Below, piece after piece: positions 5,566 through 53,549 of a DNA stretch of 64,000 bases; position 1 is the stretch's first letter, and each line of letters starts with the position of its first letter. The notes under the pieces are model-generated. The model was not told the DNA's origin and made no database searches. It was given only the letters and a program-made list of their open reading frames with translations. The stretch spans positions 24,996 to 88,995 of the forward strand of contig JAZDOC010000006.1 in assembly GCA_043798935.1 (NCBI GenBank), in the 5' to 3' direction. This DNA comes from Patescibacteria group bacterium (GTDB lineage: Bacteria > Patescibacteriota > Patescibacteriia > UBA9570 > JAHJKD01). Both the position numbers and the translations under genes were made by a program.

Positions 5566-5577
5566 ATTTGTATTATA

Positions 5578-7602
5578 ATGAATAAAATTAAAAAATACAA
5601 AAGATCTGTTTTCGTTCAAAACAGTTTTTTAATAACTGGGCTGTTTTTATTGTTTTTTCCGTTTACTCTAAAAGCGGCTAATATTCATGAATATCCTAAA
5701 TTGTCTCTGTATCACTTAAATTCGGTTTTCGATGAGGAACAAGCTAAGAAAATCGCTCAATTCGATTTAGTAATTCTTACTATGGAAGCTCAGGAATATA
5801 ATCCTCAGGGCATTAAATTATTACGACAATACAATCCAAACATCACTATTCTTCCGTATGTACCCAGCCAAGGAGTCCATTTTTCCGACGCCTCAAATAT
5901 CAGATATAAGTTAATCAAACAAGTCCAAGATAGCTGGTATTTATTAGACGGCGATGGCAATAGAATTTCCCGGTATAAGGGTGAATACGATATGAACATT
6001 ACAAAAAAAGCTTGGCGAAAAGCTTTGGTAAATTTTGTAAAAGATTTAAACACGGCTAAATGCAATGGCGTACGCTGTTGGGACGGTGTCTTTTTTGATG
6101 TGGTTGAAGATAATTTAGATTATTTAGGTGGCATTGATATTAATAATGATGGTGAGGCCGATGATAGTAAATATGTAAATGAAAAGTGGGTGGCAAGCTA
6201 TAAAAAAATATTCAAATCAACCCGAAAAAAATTAGGCAAAAACAAAGTAATTGTAATTAACGGAGTTTCGACAAAAAAACTGCAAGCCAATGTTAACGGC
6301 CGTATGTTTGAAAATTTTCCGACTCCATGGCACGCCGATGGCTCGTGGAAGGGGGTAACTGAAAATACAGTTGATCTGGAAGAATTGAATTATTCGCCGG
6401 TATCAATTATTTTTTCCGCCGAGGGTGATGAAAATGATTATCAAAAATTAAGGTATTCATTAACATCAGCCATGGTTTTTGGAGCTTATGGCGGTTATGA
6501 TAACGGCATTAGTAAAGTTCATAAAAGTGTCTGGCTTTACGATGAATATCAAACTAAATTAGGAAACGCACTAAATACCGGTTATAATTTGCTTGATATA
6601 AATAATACCAAAGTTAAACCCGGTGTTTGGCGGCGTGATTTTGAAAATGGGATAGCCATTGTGAATTCCACAAATATAGCACACAAAGTATTATTAGAGC
6701 AGGGTTTTGAAAAAATCAATGGAACTCAGGGAAATATAAACGATGGCAGTTTGGTTGGCAGTGTAACTATTAATGCCAACGACGGCATTGTTTTATTAGG
6801 CAGAATTCAAACAATTTCATACGCGCCATTTGTAAACGGCGCTCAGGCCAAGGTTTACAACATTAACGGCGTTTCTCAAAGAAAAACTTTTTTCCCCTAT
6901 GACTCTAAATATCCGGGTAGTGTGCAGATTGTGAAATTGCCGGATGTTAATAAAGCTGTAGTAGCTGAAGACACTTATGTAAGCGTTTACAAGAACAATA
7001 AATTAGTAGCTAAGTTTGCGCCTTATGGCGAAGCTTTTTCGGGCGGAGTAAATATTGCGGTTGATCGGTTATACAGCCGAGGCAATAAAGGGGATTATTT
7101 TATTGTTACTGGTACTGAAAAATATGGTCCTCATGTAAGAATATTTACAATTGATGGCAAATTACATGATCCGGGTTGCTTTCCTTATGCGGAAAATTTT
7201 CGCGGTGGAGTATTTGTAGCCATTGGCGACGTGGATAAAGGAAATGCGGGCAAAGAGATTGTGGTTTCAGCCGGCCTTGATGGCGGTCCGCATGTTCGAA
7301 TTCTCAATAATAAGTGCGAGTTAATTAGCCCTGGTTTCATGGCTTACGACACATCCCTCCGTACCGGAATCAATGTAGCTGTGGGCGACGTAAACGGCGA
7401 TGGCAAAAACGAAATTATTACGGGTACTGGTCCGGGCGCCGGTCCGGAAGTGCGGGTTTTTAATAAAAATGGTAAACTATTAAGTAGTTTTTTCGCTTTT
7501 AATAAAAGCGATCGAAACGGCGTCAGAGTCTCGACAGCTGATGTAAGCGGTAATTCAAGAAAAGAAATCATTGCCACCAGTTTCGCTATTTATGGATACT
7601 AA
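5578..7602 (+). CDS. secreted protein: N-terminal signal peptide, putative TIM-barrel glycan hydrolase-like domain, C-terminal FG-GAP repeats
   Basis: Signal peptide LFLLFFPFTLKAANI; repeated VAxGDVNGDGKNEIxTG / AIGDVDKGNAGKEIVVSAG FG-GAP-type repeats in the last about 200 aa. Confidence 0.5.
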   Translation: MNKIKKYKRSVFVQNSFLITGLFLLFFPFTLKAANIHEYPKLSLYHLNSVFDEEQAKKIAQFDLVILTMEAQEYNPQGIKLLRQYNPNITILPYVPSQGVHFSDASNIRYKLIKQVQDSWYLLDGDGNRISRYKGEYDMNITKKAWRKALVNFVKDLNTAKCNGVRCWDGVFFDVVEDNLDYLGGIDINNDGEADDSKYVNEKWVASYKKIFKSTRKKLGKNKVIVINGVSTKKLQANVNGRMFENFPTPWHADGSWKGVTENTVDLEELNYSPVSIIFSAEGDENDYQKLRYSLTSAMVFGAYGGYDNGISKVHKSVWLYDEYQTKLGNALNTGYNLLDINNTKVKPGVWRRDFENGIAIVNSTNIAHKVLLEQGFEKINGTQGNINDGSLVGSVTINANDGIVLLGRIQTISYAPFVNGAQAKVYNINGVSQRKTFFPYDSKYPGSVQIVKLPDVNKAVVAEDTYVSVYKNNKLVAKFAPYGEAFSGGVNIAVDRLYSRGNKGDYFIVTGTEKYGPHVRIFTIDGKLHDPGCFPYAENFRGGVFVAIGDVDKGNAGKEIVVSAGLDGGPHVRILNNKCELISPGFMAYDTSLRTGINVAVGDVNGDGKNEIITGTGPGAGPEVRVFNKNGKLLSSFFAFNKSDRNGVRVSTADVSGNSRKEIIATSFAIYGY

Positions 7603-7603
7603 T

Positions 7604-9340
7604 ATGCATAAAAAAATTTGGCATCACACTAAAAGAATCGCGCATCATACGGCAAAAAAAACCGGTCATATTTTATTTCCGTGGATGGTTCATTTTCTAA
7701 CCGATAAATATCAAAACAAGCATCATCATGTTGTGGTTGATACAATTTTTTCGTTGTGCATTATTGTATTAATTGCTTTCAACATTGGTTTAGGATATTG
7801 GTTTTTTCTATTTACTACACCGGCGCAATTAAATATAAAACTCGATACGCCCACGTTTGTAATTTCCGGATCAGAGATAACCTATTACATCAACTATCAT
7901 AATGTCAGTAAAGACGTTGATAATGTAAATTTTACATTAATTGCACCTTCTACTTTTACTTATACTCATAGTAATTTAGAGAAAACCGAGAATTCATATT
8001 ATTTTGGAGAATTAGATAAATATAAATTTGGTGAAGCTGCTATCAGCGGAGAAATTATCGGACGAGTTAACGAATGGCAGAAAGTGTCGGTAATAATAAA
8101 TTATCGTTATCATGGGCAGGAGTTTTCACAAATTGTTTCGCATTCATACCAAATTTCAGATAGCTCTTTGGAAATTACTACCGAACTGCCGGAAAGCATC
8201 TTGAATAATCAAGAGTTTACCTGGTACATTCATTATAAAAATAATTCTAATTTTAACCGAGATAATATAAATTTTATTCTTGATTTACCCGATACATTAG
8301 CAATTACCAGCGCACCGGAACAATATAATAAAGATGATAAAAAAATTACATTAATAAATGTTGAACCCTGGGCGCAAGGGGATTTAGAATTTAAAGGTAT
8401 TTTTTCAAAAGCCGTGGGTGAAAGCGATACTTTTATTCGTGTTGTTAGCAGTTTCGATGTCTCAGACATTGTTTATGCGCAAACCAGTTATATGGAAACA
8501 GTAGAAGTTTTAACACCGCGAATGAGTATTAATTCCAGCGCAAAAACAGTAGCCGGCATCGGTGAAAAATTTTATTATCGAATTGATTGCAGTAATATTG
8601 GTGATGTCGAACTTACTAATGTAAAAGTTTCAGCATCAGTAGCCGTTAATCAAGAAGCGAATATCGGTTTATATGCTTCCAGTGGGAGTGTATATGAAAA
8701 TAGTGCAACGTGGATTATAGATTCGCTTTTGGCCGGGGAAACCAAATCTGTTTATCTAACAATTTCCACGCCTTATAATTTAAGAAAACAAGATTTGGCT
8801 ATTTCCATGAGTTCAAGCGCGCTGGCCAATATTAGCGATCTCAAAGTGTTAACTTATAGTAATCAAAGCACTGCTAACACAAAATTTAATTCCACTCTAG
8901 ATTTCGAAAATATCGCCAGATATTACGATAACAATGGCGAACAAATTGGCTACGGGCCATACCCGCTCGTAAACGGGGAAATTACAGCAGTTAGTATTTT
9001 TTGGAATCTTCGAGATTTTACCAATGATCTTCACAATGTAACCATTGTTACTACTTTACCATCGCAAGTAGAGTGGACTAACAATACCGCCGTGTCTTCT
9101 GGCGCAAACATTAGCTATAATCCGGCCACACGCGAGGTGATATGGCATACATCGTCTATTCCGGCTTTTGCTGGTCCACAAGGCGCAAATTTTGAGGTTA
9201 GAATACTGCCCAATAACCAGCAAATAGGAACTAGCGTGAACCTTACTAATTCTACCCGTTTTTCAGCTCAAGACGCTTATACTAATTCTATTATGATTCG
9301 CGATTTAGACGCTCTTAAAGCCGATGGTGTTGTTCAATAG
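7604..9340 (+). CDS. membrane-anchored surface protein with four DUF11-like (conserved repeat domain) repeats
   Basis: Start moved to ATG after the upstream stop; His-rich N-terminus, one TM helix, then four repeats of the Y-x-I-x-Y-x-N-x-S/G...(D/N)V-x-(F/L)-x...LP type. Confidence 0.45.
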   Translation: MHKKIWHHTKRIAHHTAKKTGHILFPWMVHFLTDKYQNKHHHVVVDTIFSLCIIVLIAFNIGLGYWFFLFTTPAQLNIKLDTPTFVISGSEITYYINYHNVSKDVDNVNFTLIAPSTFTYTHSNLEKTENSYYFGELDKYKFGEAAISGEIIGRVNEWQKVSVIINYRYHGQEFSQIVSHSYQISDSSLEITTELPESILNNQEFTWYIHYKNNSNFNRDNINFILDLPDTLAITSAPEQYNKDDKKITLINVEPWAQGDLEFKGIFSKAVGESDTFIRVVSSFDVSDIVYAQTSYMETVEVLTPRMSINSSAKTVAGIGEKFYYRIDCSNIGDVELTNVKVSASVAVNQEANIGLYASSGSVYENSATWIIDSLLAGETKSVYLTISTPYNLRKQDLAISMSSSALANISDLKVLTYSNQSTANTKFNSTLDFENIARYYDNNGEQIGYGPYPLVNGEITAVSIFWNLRDFTNDLHNVTIVTTLPSQVEWTNNTAVSSGANISYNPATREVIWHTSSIPAFAGPQGANFEVRILPNNQQIGTSVNLTNSTRFSAQDAYTNSIMIRDLDALKADGVVQ

Positions 9341-10672: not shown

Positions 10673-10752
10673 TAGCCCCGCCCCTCACGGGCGTGGGCTA
10701 TTTTTAATTGAATGTTTAGCCCACTGGCATAAAGCCAGGGGCTAAATTTTTT
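10673..10752 (+). terminator. two tandem rho-independent terminators sharing a TAGCCC...GGGCTA stem
   Basis: TAGCCCCGCCCCTCACGGGCGTGGGCTA+TTTTT and TTAGCCCACTGGCATAAAGCCAGGGGCTAA+ATTTTTT. Confidence 0.45.
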
Positions 10753-17644: not shown

Positions 17645-17673
17645 TTGACAATGCACTCTAATAGCACTACAAT
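17645..17673 (+). promoter_or_regulatory. consensus sigma70 promoter TTGACA-17-TACAAT
   Basis: Perfect -35 hexamer, exact 17-nt spacer, 5/6 -10 hexamer; sits in the only sizeable gap before the sat operon. Confidence 0.6.
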
Positions 17674-17683
17674 AAGAGTGTAT

Positions 17684-17706
17684 TTGATTAACACAAGGTT
17701 AATCAA
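17684..17706 (+). promoter_or_regulatory. perfect 9-bp inverted repeat TTGATTAAC-N5-GTTAATCAA (operator-like) just downstream of the predicted TSS
   Basis: Seen directly in the sequence; lies at about +5 to +27 of the promoter above. Confidence 0.5.
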
Positions 17707-17725
17707 AATATTTAAATAATTAAAG

Positions 17726-17758
17726 TTATGACCCAGCTTGCCTAGGTCAGAATAAAAA
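17726..17758 (+). other. conserved leader motif copy A (TTATGACCCAGCTTGCCTAGGTCAGAATAAAAA), ends 4 nt before the ATG at 17763
   Basis: 31/33 identical to a second copy at 51603-51635 with identical spacing to a start codon. Confidence 0.5.
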
Positions 17759-17762
17759 TTTT

Positions 17763-17987
17763 ATGGCCGAAATTATTATCCCTAATGATTTGAAAGAATC
17801 GTTAGAACAAATTGTAAAAGATTCTAATGAATTTAGCAGTGTTAATGATTATGCTACTTACATTCTTAAACAAGTAGCCGATAAGAAAAAAGCTTCTCAA
17901 ACACAATCTCATCAAGATCAGGCTTATTCTAAAGAAGATGAAGCTAAAATAAAAGAACGACTTCAAAATCTTGGTTATCTAGATTAA
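17763..17987 (+). CDS. small hypothetical protein, possible ribbon-helix-helix (CopG/Arc-like) DNA-binding protein
   Basis: 74 aa; N-terminal beta-strand-like IIIPNDLKESLEQIV followed by helices; first gene after the promoter/palindrome. Confidence 0.35.
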   Translation: MAEIIIPNDLKESLEQIVKDSNEFSSVNDYATYILKQVADKKKASQTQSHQDQAYSKEDEAKIKERLQNLGYLD

Positions 17988-24017: not shown

Positions 24018-24678
24018 TAAAATCAGCGATATTAAAAAATATCAAAAAGCGCACGATAGTATTTTTTCCAAACTAATTACCCGTAAAATTTCAGTTATTT
24101 TTAGCTTTTATTTAATTAAGCGTTGGAAGCAGGTAACACCTAATAAAGTTTCGCTAATTTCTTTTATTACAGCCGTGGTAGCTATCGGATTATTTCTGGC
24201 TGATAATTATTTTGTTCGATTACTCGGCGTAGTTTTTTTACAAATTTCTTTTGCCTTAGATTGCTCTGATGGAGAAATTGCTAGAATTAAAGAAATGAGT
24301 TCTAAATTCGGCGCTTGGATGGATAGTGTTTTAGACAGGTTTAAAGAAGTAATGATGTTTGGAGCATTAACTTTTATTGTTTATAATTATGCCTGGGATA
24401 CGTCTGCTTTATTAATCGGATCTTTGGCAATAATTTTATGGCTATTAGTGGGATTTTTAAGAGAAGCAAAAAAGTCTTCCTGGCCGGAAAAGCGCACAGC
24501 GGAATTATATATTACTGATAACATATATATCGGTACCGTAGATACTACTATTTATTTTGTATGCTTTGCCATAATAATCCACATGGAATTGATGGCGTTA
24601 TGGGTTTTTGCAATTTTGGGATTAATACTACTAGTGAAACAAATTATTAGTGCTTGGCAGCTGGAGAAAAAGATTTAA
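23989..24678 (+). CDS. CDP-alcohol phosphatidyltransferase family protein
   Basis: D-x2-DG-x2-AR-x7/8-G-x3-D-x3-D signature: DCSDGEIARIKEMSSKFGAWMDSVLDRFKE; 6 TM helices. Confidence 0.7.
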   Translation: MLTPLFMEINKISDIKKYQKAHDSIFSKLITRKISVIFSFYLIKRWKQVTPNKVSLISFITAVVAIGLFLADNYFVRLLGVVFLQISFALDCSDGEIARIKEMSSKFGAWMDSVLDRFKEVMMFGALTFIVYNYAWDTSALLIGSLAIILWLLVGFLREAKKSSWPEKRTAELYITDNIYIGTVDTTIYFVCFAIIIHMELMALWVFAILGLILLVKQIISAWQLEKKI

Positions 24679-25966
24679 AATATTTTGTCTGCATAAACAG
24701 CAGAATTATAAAGAGAATAGATAAAGCGATAGTTGAAACTCTGGTTAATATAAAATTACTATTCGGAATGAAATTGTAAAATTCTGTCGAAATGAAAATA
24801 ACAACACTAATAATACTTAAATAAACTTTTTTTTCTTTTAAAAAATAATAGATTAACCATATTAGAATTGGTACGGTCCAAAATAAATATTGAGCATGAA
24901 CACTTTTATTGAACAATAGAAAAAAAGTCATCATCAGAGCATAATCATTTAAATATTGTTGCCCAGAAAGAGTAACTCTTTTTTTATACATTAAGTATAA
25001 AATTGTTGTAAAGAAAAAAATTGTTGATAAAAGAAATAAATCATCAAAAGTTGATATTAAAGTTTGATTGGGCAATGATAAAAAGGGCAAATAATTTTTT
25101 TTAATTGCGACTCGAACAAGGCTATATAAAGAAACTCCTGATGTTAGATCGTTTATGCCATTAACAAAATATTCCCAAAAAACATTTTTCCAGAAATAAT
25201 AAATGCCATTTATTTTAAAATACGGAACAGTCGCGATCACTAATAATATTGATGAAAAAACATAAGATGTCAGGGCACGCCATTGTTTTTTAATAATAAA
25301 ATATGGAACGAAAATAACCGGAAATATTTTTAAGGCTGTTGCTATAGCCAAGATACTGCCAGCCATAATCGGTTTTTTTTTATAAAGAGCAATAAAAGTG
25401 GTGATTAATAAAAATAATATCACCCCATTAATTTGGCCGGTTCCCATTAAGCTGTTAATTGGTGCGGCAAAACATAATAGAAGCAATGAAATGGAAAAAA
25501 GCGGATGGAATAATTTTTTTCGATCAATTAAAAAATAGATACCGGCATAATAAGTAATAATAAATAGCAGTGAATTAAACTAGAGCCAATAGTGAACTAA
25601 TATTTTAAATTTAAAATGCGAAAAAAATAAAAAGAAAAGCGCTGCTTGCGGTGGATATAAAAATTTTGTTCCGCCGCTATCGAATACTTTTCTAACTTCC
25701 GGTCTAAAAAACGGACGATTATAGATGTCGACGGCGGTTAAAGGAGTTAATATACCGGTTAATACTTTTGATGATGTATAATAAACGCACATATCGCTCC
25801 GACCATAGCCTTTGTTATTAAGATAAACACCGTTGTAATAAAGAAAAAAAATAATCGCTATTATAAACAGAACAATACAAAATATCTTATAAAATTTTAA
25901 TAAATTATATTTGTTAAAATTTAATGTCATTGATAAGATTATTAATCGCTTGTTTTTCAGTTTCAA
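24647..25966 (-). pseudogene. GT87/DUF2029-like GT-C membrane glycosyltransferase interrupted by one in-frame TAG (codon at 25580-25582)
   Basis: ORFs 25580..25966 and 24647..25486 are in the same frame; manual translation shows no other stop between them (amber then FNSLLFIITYYAGIYFLIDRKKLFHPFFSISLLLCFAAP...); N-terminal part has the YPPqAAlFF motif typical of DUF2029. Confidence 0.4.
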
Positions 25967-32408: not shown

Positions 32409-32437
32409 TTGGCAAAATCGGTTAATTAATCTATAAT
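32409..32437 (+). promoter_or_regulatory. sigma70 promoter TTGGCA-17-TATAAT
   Basis: 5/6 -35, 17-nt spacer, perfect -10; 8 nt before the ATG at 32445, in a divergent intergenic region. Confidence 0.55.
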
Positions 32438-32444
32438 AACGGCA

Positions 32445-34878: not shown

Positions 34879-36426
34879 TTGGCTATTATATCAAGCTTGA
34901 TTTATTTTGGCAATTTATTTATAATAATGAAGATGAAAATAGAGAAAATTACGAAAATTTGGTCAATTTTTTTATTTGTGGCGATTGTGGCTCTTTTTTT
35001 GTTTTTACTTAATAATTACTTTGTTTTTAACGGAAAATTAACAATTTCATACGATTTTTGCTCGCCAGCAACACTCATTACTGAATTTACGCCTACTGGC
35101 CGAGCCTTAGCCATTGAAAAAAACCTAAAAACGGGGGAATGTTATCAGAGAATCGTCGGAGAGCCGGTTTATTTCACTTCTTATGTACCCCGTTCGTTTG
35201 ATACGGCGGAGGTGGCTATAAATTATCAAAACCCCAGCCAAAGCATTTTAGAGCTTGGTGTGCAAAAATCCATTGATTGGAATTTCGAGTTAAAGCCTTT
35301 GGAAAATAAATTTATCGATAATTCGACTTGGGATAGAATAAACACTGATAATATAATTTTTTTACAAAAACAAAAAAAATATAATAGCTATCAGGAATTT
35401 TTAGATAATGTTCCGACTGATAAAAAAATAGCTACTTATAATTATAGTTTGCCGTATAAATTTGTGATCGACGATTATGAGCCAAGCGACAAACAGCTTG
35501 AAATTAATACGGCACTGCGAGGCCGGCATGAATTTTATACTTATTTAGGCAAAGGCGAAGATCTTGATTTTACTTTCTATTGGCAAGATATTAACTGGGC
35601 GCTGAGCGCGGATAATTTTATAGTGCGTATTTACAAAGATGACACTGAAATTCAAACCGAAGTCGAGCCCGGAGACGGCAATACCGATATTAGTGGCACG
35701 GCTTCACTGGTTAAAGAGAAACAAATAAAACTAACTAATTTAAGCGGTGGGTTATTCCGGATAGTAGTTGATGTTAGTAATGATGTTTTTATTCGAAAAA
35801 TTATCACTAAGCAACATTTGCTAGTAGTAAAAAACAGAATTTTTTTAGCTGACAGCGAGGCCCATAAAAATAGCATTTCAGATTTAACTCTGGATCCTAC
35901 CACGTTATATACTAACAGTGATATTTTATTAGCGCGTACTGATCATTCGGAAAGTTTGCAAAGCATAAGCATTAACAACGACAAATTAGAACTTATTCGC
36001 ACCGGTGAAGATTTTAAATGGAGTGATGATAATAATTTAGGTTCCATAAAAATTATTAACGCTGTTTTAAATGATGTATACATTCAAGGATTTGGCTATT
36101 ATTCTTTTACGCCCGAAAGTTTTTTTGATCCCGACTATGGCATAGATATTTTGCGCACCGACATGAATATGGATAATTACGATTATTTAATTGCCAAAGA
36201 TTATTCTGCCCCGACAGCTGTTCGCAGTTGGAACGCGGCTACGCAAAGTTTTGTTTTAGACACGGTACCGGGCGACAGAAAAACATTAAATTTTATTCTG
36301 TCCGCACCCGGAATCACCGATATTAATAGCCAGATTATAGTTAAAAATATTGAAATTAAATTTAAAAAAGATCCATTAAATTTAAAAAATTTATGGCCGC
36401 GGCTAAAGTTTAAATTAGGCTTATGA
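34879..36426 (+). CDS. hypothetical exported protein with an N-terminal TM anchor (true start possibly the MKMKIEK methionine)
   Basis: 515 aa; one N-terminal hydrophobic helix then a large hydrophilic domain; no recognisable motif. Confidence 0.35.
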   Translation: MAIISSLIYFGNLFIIMKMKIEKITKIWSIFLFVAIVALFLFLLNNYFVFNGKLTISYDFCSPATLITEFTPTGRALAIEKNLKTGECYQRIVGEPVYFTSYVPRSFDTAEVAINYQNPSQSILELGVQKSIDWNFELKPLENKFIDNSTWDRINTDNIIFLQKQKKYNSYQEFLDNVPTDKKIATYNYSLPYKFVIDDYEPSDKQLEINTALRGRHEFYTYLGKGEDLDFTFYWQDINWALSADNFIVRIYKDDTEIQTEVEPGDGNTDISGTASLVKEKQIKLTNLSGGLFRIVVDVSNDVFIRKIITKQHLLVVKNRIFLADSEAHKNSISDLTLDPTTLYTNSDILLARTDHSESLQSISINNDKLELIRTGEDFKWSDDNNLGSIKIINAVLNDVYIQGFGYYSFTPESFFDPDYGIDILRTDMNMDNYDYLIAKDYSAPTAVRSWNAATQSFVLDTVPGDRKTLNFILSAPGITDINSQIIVKNIEIKFKKDPLNLKNLWPRLKFKLGL

Positions 36427-47797: not shown

Positions 47798-47853
47798 TTT
47801 TAAATTGTAATTAACAAAGAAAGCGAGTCTCCCGACGAGCTAAAATAAAATAT

Positions 47854-49495: not shown

Positions 49496-49590
49496 ATTTT
49501 TAATTTTTTGTTCCTTGAATAAATTCAGGTTTAAAAAATCAATGTAAATATAGAGGCCCTGAATTTATTCAGGGTGTCAAAAAATAATAA

Positions 49591-51552: not shown

Positions 51553-51602
51553 TTAAATGATTTAGACAAGCTAAATCATAACATTAGTATGAATATAAAA
51601 TG

Positions 51603-51635
51603 TTATGACACAGCTTGCCTTGGTCAGAATAAAAA
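51603..51635 (+). other. conserved leader motif copy B (TTATGACACAGCTTGCCTTGGTCAGAATAAAAA), ends 4 nt before the ATG at 51640
   Basis: 31/33 identical to copy A at 17726-17758. Confidence 0.5.
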
Positions 51636-51639
51636 AAAT

Positions 51640-52101
51640 ATGATTAACGGTGTAAAAATTAAAGAAATAAAAACGCATGCCCACGGGCGGGGAAATTTTC
51701 AGGAAATTCTTCGTGACGATGATAATCTTTTAGAGAAATTTGGGCAATGTTCAATTACTGTCACTTATCCGGGCGTGATTAAAGCTTTTCATTGGCACAA
51801 AAAGCAAGATGATTTATGGTATGCGGTCAGTGGAAATGCCAGAGTGGTGCTTCATGATTTGCGAAAAGAATCAGAAACCTATGGTCAAACCCAAGAAATA
51901 TATATGGGTGAAAACAGTAATAATTCAAGAATAGTGCTTATTCCTAAAGGTGTAGCCCACGGGTATCAGGTTTTAGGAAACAGTAATTTTACTTTAATGT
52001 ATTTTACAACATTGTCTTACGACCCAAAAAATCCAGATGAAGAAAGAATCTCTTATGATGATAAAAATATTAATTTTGATTGGACTATTAAACACGAATA
52101 A
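51640..52101 (+). CDS. rmlC: dTDP-4-dehydrorhamnose 3,5-epimerase-like cupin (start corrected to MINGVKIKE)
   Basis: GRGNFQEI, FHWHKKQDDLWYAVSG, PKGVAHGYQVL: RmlC-family motifs; ORF-track start at 51589 would place the conserved leader motif inside the CDS. Confidence 0.65.
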   Translation: MINGVKIKEIKTHAHGRGNFQEILRDDDNLLEKFGQCSITVTYPGVIKAFHWHKKQDDLWYAVSGNARVVLHDLRKESETYGQTQEIYMGENSNNSRIVLIPKGVAHGYQVLGNSNFTLMYFTTLSYDPKNPDEERISYDDKNINFDWTIKHE

Positions 52102-53114: not shown

Positions 53115-53549
53115 ATGACTAGTAATTATAAAATTAATTATCATTATCCCGAGACAAATGTCGGCGTGATTATGAATGACGACGGAATTTTAGAAATTCA
53201 TTATTCAGAAAACACTTATACAGAAGAAGAGAATGTGGCAGAAACAGTTTGGGTGCGAGATACGCTAGATAAAATTATTAGTGATTACCCGGATATTAAA
53301 ATTTATGCTTTAATGGATGTTACTTCGGCCGGCGACGCTGAGGAAATTAGTGATGAATCAATGAAAATTTACAGCAAGACAATGAATTATCCGCAAGTTA
53401 AAAATATTGCAATTTTCGGACAAACCAAATGGTTTGCTATGTTATTAAATATCATGGTTAAACTAAGTAAAACTTTCGGCAAAACAAAATTGTTTGATGA
53501 TAAAGAAAATGCAATAGCCTGGCTGAAAGAAAAAAAAGCAAAAAGATAA
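53115..53549 (+). CDS. hypothetical protein inserted between rmlB and rmlD
   Basis: 144 aa, acidic, no recognisable motif. Confidence 0.3.
   Translation: MTSNYKINYHYPETNVGVIMNDDGILEIHYSENTYTEEENVAETVWVRDTLDKIISDYPDIKIYALMDVTSAGDAEEISDESMKIYSKTMNYPQVKNIAIFGQTKWFAMLLNIMVKLSKTFGKTKLFDDKENAIAWLKEKKAKR

Follow-up and report, generated by a model that had tools for sequence, protein, structure and literature searches.

The 33-nt sequence recurring ahead of two genes in a glycan island of a Patescibacteria (CPR) genome is the right-hand half of a 65-69-nt inverted doublet, which contains two copies of a single palindromic unit. On balance, this doublet is probably a palindromic repeat of the REPIN, BIME or MITE kind that sits in two 5' leaders. 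This reading is favored by the inverted-doublet symmetry, the existence of empty orthologous sites, the patchy distribution among relatives, the presence of sister families in the clade and the lack of conserved unpaired sequence. The window, meaning the whole 64-kb stretch of DNA that was analyzed, belongs to a MAG labeled "Patescibacteria group bacterium," in which proteins identical to the RHH-like and rmlC-like products of the window are annotated as MFH0818653.1 and MFH0818685.1 on a contig of 102 kb.

The motif reads TTATGAC[C/A]CAGCTTGCCT[A/T]GGTCAGAATAAAAA and occurs on the plus strand at 17726-17758 (site 1) and 51603-51635 (site 2). Coordinates, strand and the match at 31 of 33 positions, as given in a preliminary description of this DNA, were confirmed, and none of 100 dinucleotide shuffles contained two matches. 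No third copy was found in the window at up to three mismatches, and the pair is the sole notable non-coding direct repeat in the 64 kb. The copies are also, as described, richer in GC (0.52 and 0.48) than their surroundings (0.30-0.36). The motif is thus a genuine, non-random and hairpin-forming element in the untranslated leaders of two genes. Its extent had been set too short at 33 nt: in an alignment of the two sites, the similarity covers about 80 nt, from 17685 and 51558 up to each ATG. The internal inverted repeat TGACC-N11-GGTCA is present in the first copy only, the second reading TGAC-N13-GTCA; arms of 8 nt enclosing a 5-nt loop, with one mismatch in copy 1 and two in copy 2, describe both copies better. 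Similarly, each 33-mer does end 4 nt before its ATG, but a 4-nt distance between the A-run and the start codon is not general and reflects the end chosen for the 33-mer; the run of copy 2 comprises 8 A and ends 1 nt short of the ATG. The robust spacing figure is the distance from the foot of the second hairpin to the ATG, which is 13 nt in both window copies and 13 and 14 nt in the orthologous elements of two related loci (L005 and L011, respectively).

At site 1, the doublet spans 17685-17749 (65 nt, plus strand). Its first unit (hairpin 1, 17685-17705) reads TGATTAAC-ACAAG-GTTAATCA with eight perfect pairs and represents a copy of the unit in reverse orientation, scoring 34.9 bits on the minus strand. 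An AT-rich spacer (17706-17728), the last bases of which are the GTTA foot of unit 2, leads to the second unit (hairpin 2, 17729-17749), TGACCCAG-CTTGC-CTAGGTCA, which forms seven of eight pairs, scores 37.9 bits and constitutes the core of the 33-mer. An A-rich tail of 13 nt (17750-17762, GAATAAAAATTTT) follows up to the ATG at 17763 and corresponds to the context that starts generally have in this genome. The doublet at site 2 spans 51558-51626 (69 nt, plus strand) and begins with hairpin 1 (51558-51578), TGATTTAG-ACAAG-CTAAATCA, which has eight pairs, two of them compensated relative to site 1, scores 40.8 bits on the minus strand and is followed by a TAAC foot (51579-51582). The spacer from TAAC to GTTA (51579-51605) exceeds that of site 1 by 4 nt, hairpin 2 (51606-51626) reads TGACACAG-CTTGC-CTTGGTCA with six of eight pairs and 35.9 bits, and a 13-nt A-rich tail (51627-51639, GAATAAAAAAAAT) extends to the rmlC ATG at 51640.

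The unit underlying these hairpins comprises 25 nt, namely a GTTA foot, an 8-nt arm, a 5-nt loop of the form YTTRY and a second 8-nt arm. In the four elements available (two in the window and one each in L005 and L011), the AT-rich stretch between the units measures 19-23 nt, feet excluded. Hairpin 1 of site 2, read on the minus strand (GTTATGATTTAGCTTGTCTAAATCA), and hairpin 2 (GTTATGACACAGCTTGCCTTGGTCA) are the same unit. This correspondence between the minus strand of unit 1 and the plus strand of unit 2 is seen in each of the four elements, so that the element is an inverted doublet of one 25-nt unit. Such symmetry is sensible at the DNA level and not for an RNA or protein reader. The agreement extends across elements, as unit 1 of L011 (minus strand) and unit 2 of L005 are identical at 23 of 25 positions and have the loop TTTAT in common, which suggests exchange among family members.

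Both copies lie within a region encoding many glycosyltransferases, flippases and nucleotide-sugar enzymes as well as one sulfotransferase, as judged by Pfam matches of the window ORFs. A GT87-family ORF of this island (24647-25447, minus strand) covers no more of the Pfam profile than its C-terminal part and adjoins, within the region 24647-25913, a 466-nt stretch without a called gene; it may be a disrupted gene. Downstream of site 1, a gene for an RHH-like protein is followed by sat, a DHH phosphoesterase gene, a phosphodiesterase-like gene and cysC. Site 2 is embedded in a same-strand string consisting of rmlA, pfkB, ahcY and orf226, then the element, and then rmlC, rmlB, a SpoIIAA-like gene and rmlD. 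The assignment of products in the preliminary description is sound, with sat and cysC leading to PAPS, rmlC, rmlB and rmlD leading to dTDP-rhamnose, and the sulfotransferase encoded in the same island. The SpoIIAA-like/DUF7793 gene between rmlB and rmlD (53115-53549) is not found at that position in the related loci L013, L017 and L020.

The start codons behind both copies are correctly placed. The corrected rmlC start at 51640 agrees with the NCBI protein of 153 aa and with homologues of 150-185 aa, mostly 151-153 aa, and the RHH start is the true one, given that 13 homologues of 71-74 aa align from residue 1 with MAE- or MAQ-like beginnings. An N-terminal coding extension into the motif at site 1 was rejected because of an in-frame TAA at 17721 with no start codon beyond it. 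A leader peptide starting at the ATG within GTTATGA was likewise discarded, as the peptides and their stops vary (MTQLA*, MTQLALVRIKKI*, MIKFILIKQITLWPK*); the other strand of unit 1 holds the same ATG, which makes it a feature of the unit. The motif had also been thought to replace a Shine-Dalgarno sequence. There is nothing for it to replace, since none of the approximately 60 listed ORF starts in the window is preceded by one and A-rich leaders are the rule. Several genes carry a TATAAT-like hexamer 0-8 nt before the ATG (for example at 34915-34926, 5566-5577 and 32433-32444), and hexamers that near the start suggest leaderless or very short-leader mRNAs. A crude systematic scan did not uphold hairpins ending 12-15 nt before starts as a rule of the clade, the spread being 9-45 nt. 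A promoter borne by the element was also considered; a TAGACA-16-TAGTAT arrangement is present at 51563-51590, but hexamer matches are no commoner than in shuffles.

Across eight units, 93.8% of cells pair and five of the eight pairs are changed on both sides, values that were reached by none of 500 shuffles; slid controls gave pairing of at most 45%, and 95.2% of cells pair in the four full elements. RNAalifold independently recovers both local hairpins. Both hairpins hence keep pairing through compensatory changes, in the window as well as in its relatives, under the covariation and folding check that had been suggested for the motif. Base pairing is clearly maintained while the arm sequence varies. 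One-sided (G-U) changes were seen at no pair across the units, and the absence of G-U intermediates fits palindromes kept at the DNA level. Pairing may be kept in RNA, in single-stranded DNA or through templated palindrome repair, the sequence being compatible with each of them. The units may also pair with one another: a long single hairpin is more stable than two separate hairpins at site 2 (-21.4 vs. -9.0 kcal/mol) and in L011 (-18.0 vs. -14.5 kcal/mol) and less stable at site 1 (-8.9 vs. -13.1 kcal/mol) and in L005 (-16.0 vs. -19.5 kcal/mol). Kissing of the loops ACAAG and CUUGC was dismissed, this match being confined to the window and lost in L005, where loop 2 is UUUAU, and in L011, where loop 1 is AUAAA. 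Concerted evolution or a tighter constraint on hairpin 2 found no backing in a comparison of left- and right-half identity (Fisher p at least 0.17).

The RHH/sat loci of related populations were collected through protein homologues and a degenerate DNA scan of metagenomes. The doublet is present at the orthologous site in two of five lineages. In L005-L010 (RHH protein identity 70%), it has diverged with compensation, the units being GGCTAAG-ACAAG-CTTAGCC and TGATCAAG-TTTAT-CTTGATCA; in L011/L012 (78%), they are TGATTAAG-ATAAA-CTTAATCA and TGATCAAG-CTTGC-CTTGATCA. Two further lineages, L003 and L004 (approximately 80%), lack the doublet and have a leader of about 28 nt, and in L028 (59%), the ATG is preceded at a distance of 10 nt by a lone palindrome, AGACGTGGCATGCCACGTCT, which is unrelated. 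Where the site-1 copy is present, it has been retained with compensatory changes though the RHH genes share only 72-80% DNA identity. None of the five related populations examined (L013-15, L016, L017-19, L020-23 and L024-27) has the element before rmlC. Some of these are represented in both comparisons, with L013 lying on the same contig as L003, L016 on the same contig as L004, and L020-23 coming from the samples of L005.

These comparisons bear directly on the earlier proposal that precursor supply is coordinated through a cis-regulatory element common to both leaders. The absence from orthologous leaders that the preliminary description had named as telling against it is found in five of five rmlC leaders and in two of five RHH/sat leaders (L003 and L004), with the unrelated hairpin in L028 in addition. 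Co-regulation within this genome may still occur but is not supported. A rival reading along these lines is a dedicated structured 5'-UTR RNA, in which two stem-loops and the A-rich tail would be recognized by a common trans-acting factor (a protein, a small RNA or a ligand) that couples expression of the PAPS operon with that of rmlC-B-D. This is an unlikely reading, although several points speak in its favor: both copies lie in leaders and are oriented alike, the AUG following hairpin 2 after 13 nt, a strong conserved promoter lies upstream of site 1, both hairpins covary, the site-1 element persists in three lineages, and the downstream genes supply one glycan island that includes a sulfotransferase. 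Apart from the patchy distribution, it is at odds with the hairpins being inverted copies of a DNA unit, so that their loops differ as RNA (ACAAG vs. CUUGC), and with the variation of the loops among relatives (AUAAA in L011, UUUAU in L005), which leaves no conserved unpaired recognition surface and removes the CAAG/CUUG loop-loop pairing of the window. Furthermore, the fold at site 1 reaches a z-score of only -1.66, and no Rfam family matches the window at the gathering threshold; with the limit relaxed to E up to 10, only spurious low-score matches to snoRNAs, miRNAs and the like appear around both sites. Finally, rmlA (47854) lies upstream of site 2 on the same strand and rmlC is not the first gene of the string, so the rhamnose pathway would not be controlled as a unit.

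Occupied and empty orthologous sites thus both exist, in the rmlC spacer as well as in the RHH leader, which is empty in L003 and L004. In L013-15, orf239 is followed by rmlC with the gene order of the window and a spacer of 18 nt. The rmlC spacer of the window measures 87 nt, from which subtraction of the 69-nt element leaves 18 nt, exactly the spacer of L013; this is the signature of a discrete insertion at site 2. The rmlC copy accordingly looks like a discrete, lineage-specific insertion of 69 nt into an 18-nt spacer. No target-site duplication was found in the flanks, which read ...GTGTATT before and GAATAAAA after the element at site 1, and ...AATTAAA before and GAATAAAA after it at site 2. 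Further units were not found elsewhere in approximately 155 kb of related DNA. A scan of GTDB representative genomes gave one chance match only, viral contigs gave a chance match in one scan and nothing in a second, and JGI metagenomes yielded the site-1 orthologue only. No Y1/RAYT or other transposase was detected among the Pfam matches of the window ORFs.

With just two copies visible and a similarity that reaches the ATG, the RHH/sat leader might instead have been copied once to the front of rmlC by illegitimate recombination, implying neither mobility nor a family, with the hairpin symmetry upheld by intrastrand templated repair. An old single duplication would fit the identity between the window paralogues (76%), which does not exceed their identity to the L011 orthologue (78-79%). 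This scenario is nonetheless improbable. Site 2 possesses a TAAC foot that has been lost at site 1 and is retained in L005 and L011, and thus does not simply duplicate site 1 as it now stands. Nor was the promoter/operator part of the leader copied; moreover, the compensated changes in hairpin 1 indicate continued pairing pressure, and the clade has similar doublets of other families.

Upstream of site 1, a near-consensus, promoter-like TTGACA-17-TACAAT sequence (17645-17673, plus strand) lies outside the repeat and places the doublet in the 5' UTR. It is overlapped by an inverted repeat on the same strand, CACTCT (17654-17659) and AGAGTG (17675-17680), with 15 nt between the arms. All lineages retain the promoter and the AAGAGTG next to it, even where the hairpin element is missing; the -10 hexamer and the right arm are conserved in each of the six orthologous promoters, four of which also have the complete repeat. 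Promoter and inverted repeat are found together at 9885-9920 in L005, 1080-1117 in L011 and 900-935 in L028. The CACTCT-N15-AGAGTG sequence is probably an autoregulatory operator of the RHH-like protein. The RHH/CopG-like protein (17763-17987) comprises 74 aa, has no Pfam match and carries an invariant C-terminal motif, YSKEDExKIKxRLxNLGYLD; its gene precedes sat and the DHH gene in 14 of 14 loci, followed by the phosphodiesterase gene and cysC where the contig reaches. In an AF2 model (pLDDT 78), the N-terminus is extended and two helices are seen, one of them long. The top Foldseek match of this model, the RHH antitoxin ParD2, is not significant (E 5), and the best hit of a PDB sequence search with the RHH profile has an E of 0.16.

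The vicinity of a putative RHH/CopG-type regulator raises the question of whether the units themselves are operators. They could be two palindromic sites of the form TGAYNNAG-N5-CTNNRTCA, about four helical turns apart, bound by a dimeric transcription factor, possibly the adjacent RHH protein acting as a roadblock or through a loop at both loci. Each unit is indeed a 21-bp palindrome in which the mismatches of hairpin 2 would be harmless as duplex DNA, and the distance between the unit centers is 44 bp both at site 1 and in L011. The centers are, however, 48 bp apart at site 2, and the half-sites vary (TGATTAAC, TGACCCAG, TGATTTAG, GGCTAAG and TGATCAAG) while complementarity is kept. Five of eight arm positions change, always in both arms together, a pattern that marks a folded strand and not duplex recognition. 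In addition, L003, L004 and L028 retain the RHH gene and the CACTC...GAGTG repeat over the -10 hexamer although their palindromes are absent or of another kind; that repeat is therefore a likelier RHH operator than the units. An operator function of the units is accordingly very improbable. Finally, dif/Xer sites, integron attC sites and RNA thermometers were set aside, their generally known features being a poor fit in terms of arm spacing, core sequences and a start codon that is not sequestered here.

The reading as a repeat element gains weight from the neighboring spacers of the clade, which hold several other hairpin repeat families at non-orthologous sites and in both orientations. A repeat of about 45 nt with the core GATTTTTTCGAAGAAAAAATTGTATCGAA is present in four copies within 9 kb of L020, at 5972-6000 (minus strand), 6032-6060 (plus), 7882-7910 (plus) and 8899-8927 (minus), of which the first two form an inverted doublet directly upstream of rmlB (5972-6060); a single copy occurs before rmlC in a second lineage (L017, 9955-9983). 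A second hairpin repeat, GCGAGTCTCCNGACGAGC, is located before rmlA in the window (47823-47841), before rmlC in L016 (9962-9980) and between sat and the DHH gene in L004 (3059-3077, minus strand). The window contains another inverted doublet, CCTTGAATAAATTCAGG ... CCTGAATTTATTCAGG (49514-49573), within the 107-nt spacer before ahcY; it forms a 17-bp hairpin of -27 kcal/mol and is unrelated to the 33-mer doublet. In four relatives, pfkB and ahcY overlap and leave no spacer. The CCTGAATTTATTCAGG unit recurs in L004 at 1441-1456, and CCCACTGGCATRAAGCCAGGGG is present in both the window and L024. A GC-rich hairpin, CCCACTGGCAT[A/G]AAGCCAGGGG, is nearly identical between the window (10720-10741) and L024 (5939-5960), where it lies in unrelated spacers. 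L024 further repeats CCGGCTTTACGCCGG before both rmlC and rmlB. Seen against these families, the 33-mer doublet would be one instance of a lineage-variable population of intergenic palindromes.

REPINs are REP doublets that form hairpins and are known, together with BIMEs, from Proteobacteria (Bertels & Rainey 2011, PMC3337134, PMC3116915). The present element resembles them in its short imperfect palindromic unit, in the inverted arrangement of two such units around a short spacer that varies in length and sequence, in its extragenic site and in a content that differs strongly among relatives. A fold of the doublet into one long hairpin, as in REPINs, is possible and is the favored one in two of four instances (site 2 and L011). 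The unit center is likewise asymmetric and shows an orientation of the AA-TT style (ACAAG ... CTTGC). REP cores of P. fluorescens center on GCTTGC (PMC3337134, PMC3116915), a coincidence that is a curiosity. Differences are found in the visible copy number, which is low here (four units in 64 kb), in the lack of a RAYT gene in the window, in the AT-rich stems, in the location directly upstream of start codons and not at gene 3' ends, and in the host, a reduced Patescibacteria genome. High copy number and RAYT association define REPINs; the doublet works like this kind of element and probably belongs to it.

Small MITEs such as the Correia elements of Neisseria land near gene starts and alter expression. 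The doublet shares with them that it is short, non-coding, bounded by inverted repeats, situated in an intergenic spacer, presumably co-transcribed with its neighbor, and a potential source of hairpins, processing sites and promoter-like hexamers. It differs in having no recognizable target-site duplication, in being far shorter (65-69 bp), in inverted repeats that are themselves palindromes and in showing no sequence similarity to a known family. Stabilizing or two-hairpin 5' UTRs, known from the ompA 5' hairpin and from mini-ykkC-type tandem hairpins, offer a further comparison. Site 1 has a stem-loop a few nt from the likely 5' end, and the hairpins form a tandem pair with the second near the start codon; unlike those leaders, the element lacks a conserved loop sequence, matches no Rfam family and is not conserved in orthologous leaders, and it sequesters neither the start codon nor the A-rich loading region.

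If the doublet is such a repeat, it would belong to a set of lineage-variable hairpin families that occupy short intergenic spacers of this clade. Its copy in the RHH/sat leader would be old enough to be common to two related populations, and the copy before rmlC would have entered the 18-nt spacer in one lineage. As both copies lie between the likely transcription start, or the upstream gene, and the start codon, they would be co-transcribed and form two stem-loops of 7-8 bp that end 13 nt before the AUG, leaving the A-rich ribosome-loading stretch free. The constant offset would then reflect what selection lets an insertion leave intact and not a regulatory design. Effects on expression may arise as passive by-products, for instance through protection of the 5' end, insulation from the cistron upstream or a promoter carried by the element, with no signal-responsive switch expected. 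Spread may have occurred by means of a single-strand transposase acting in trans or by recombination.

Several observations run counter to the palindromic repeat: only four units in two doublets are present in 64 kb and none elsewhere in the approximately 155 kb of related DNA, the window shows no transposase among its Pfam matches and no target-site duplication, the long hairpin is disfavored at site 1 and in L005, and the two window copies and the two orthologous copies share their orientation and a nearly equal distance to the ATG. Such uniform orientation and spacing, together with the long retention at site 1, also fit a selected function in the mRNA. Both readings might be joined, such that Patescibacteria carry several REPIN-like doublet families that settle preferentially before SD-less starts, in the few nt between a stop codon and an A-rich start, and turn over between close lineages, and that this family has been co-opted as a shared leader through which PAPS and dTDP-rhamnose synthesis answer one trans-acting factor. 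Taken as a whole, this combination is decidedly unlikely.

CPR genomes are usually regarded as streamlined and repeat-poor. Full-text literature searches turned up no account of REP, REPIN or MITE-like elements in CPR/Patescibacteria. The doublet is a real feature and most likely an element of an ordinary kind whose host is unusual. If this holds true, several short hairpin repeat families, some of them inverted doublets, would be documented in a CPR clade, and a repeated "leader motif" before related operons would call for caution, since it can be a palindromic repeat and not the signal of a regulon. Residing within SD-less 5' leaders, such elements could affect mRNA stability or access to the start site, and they would provide easy markers for strain-level population studies.
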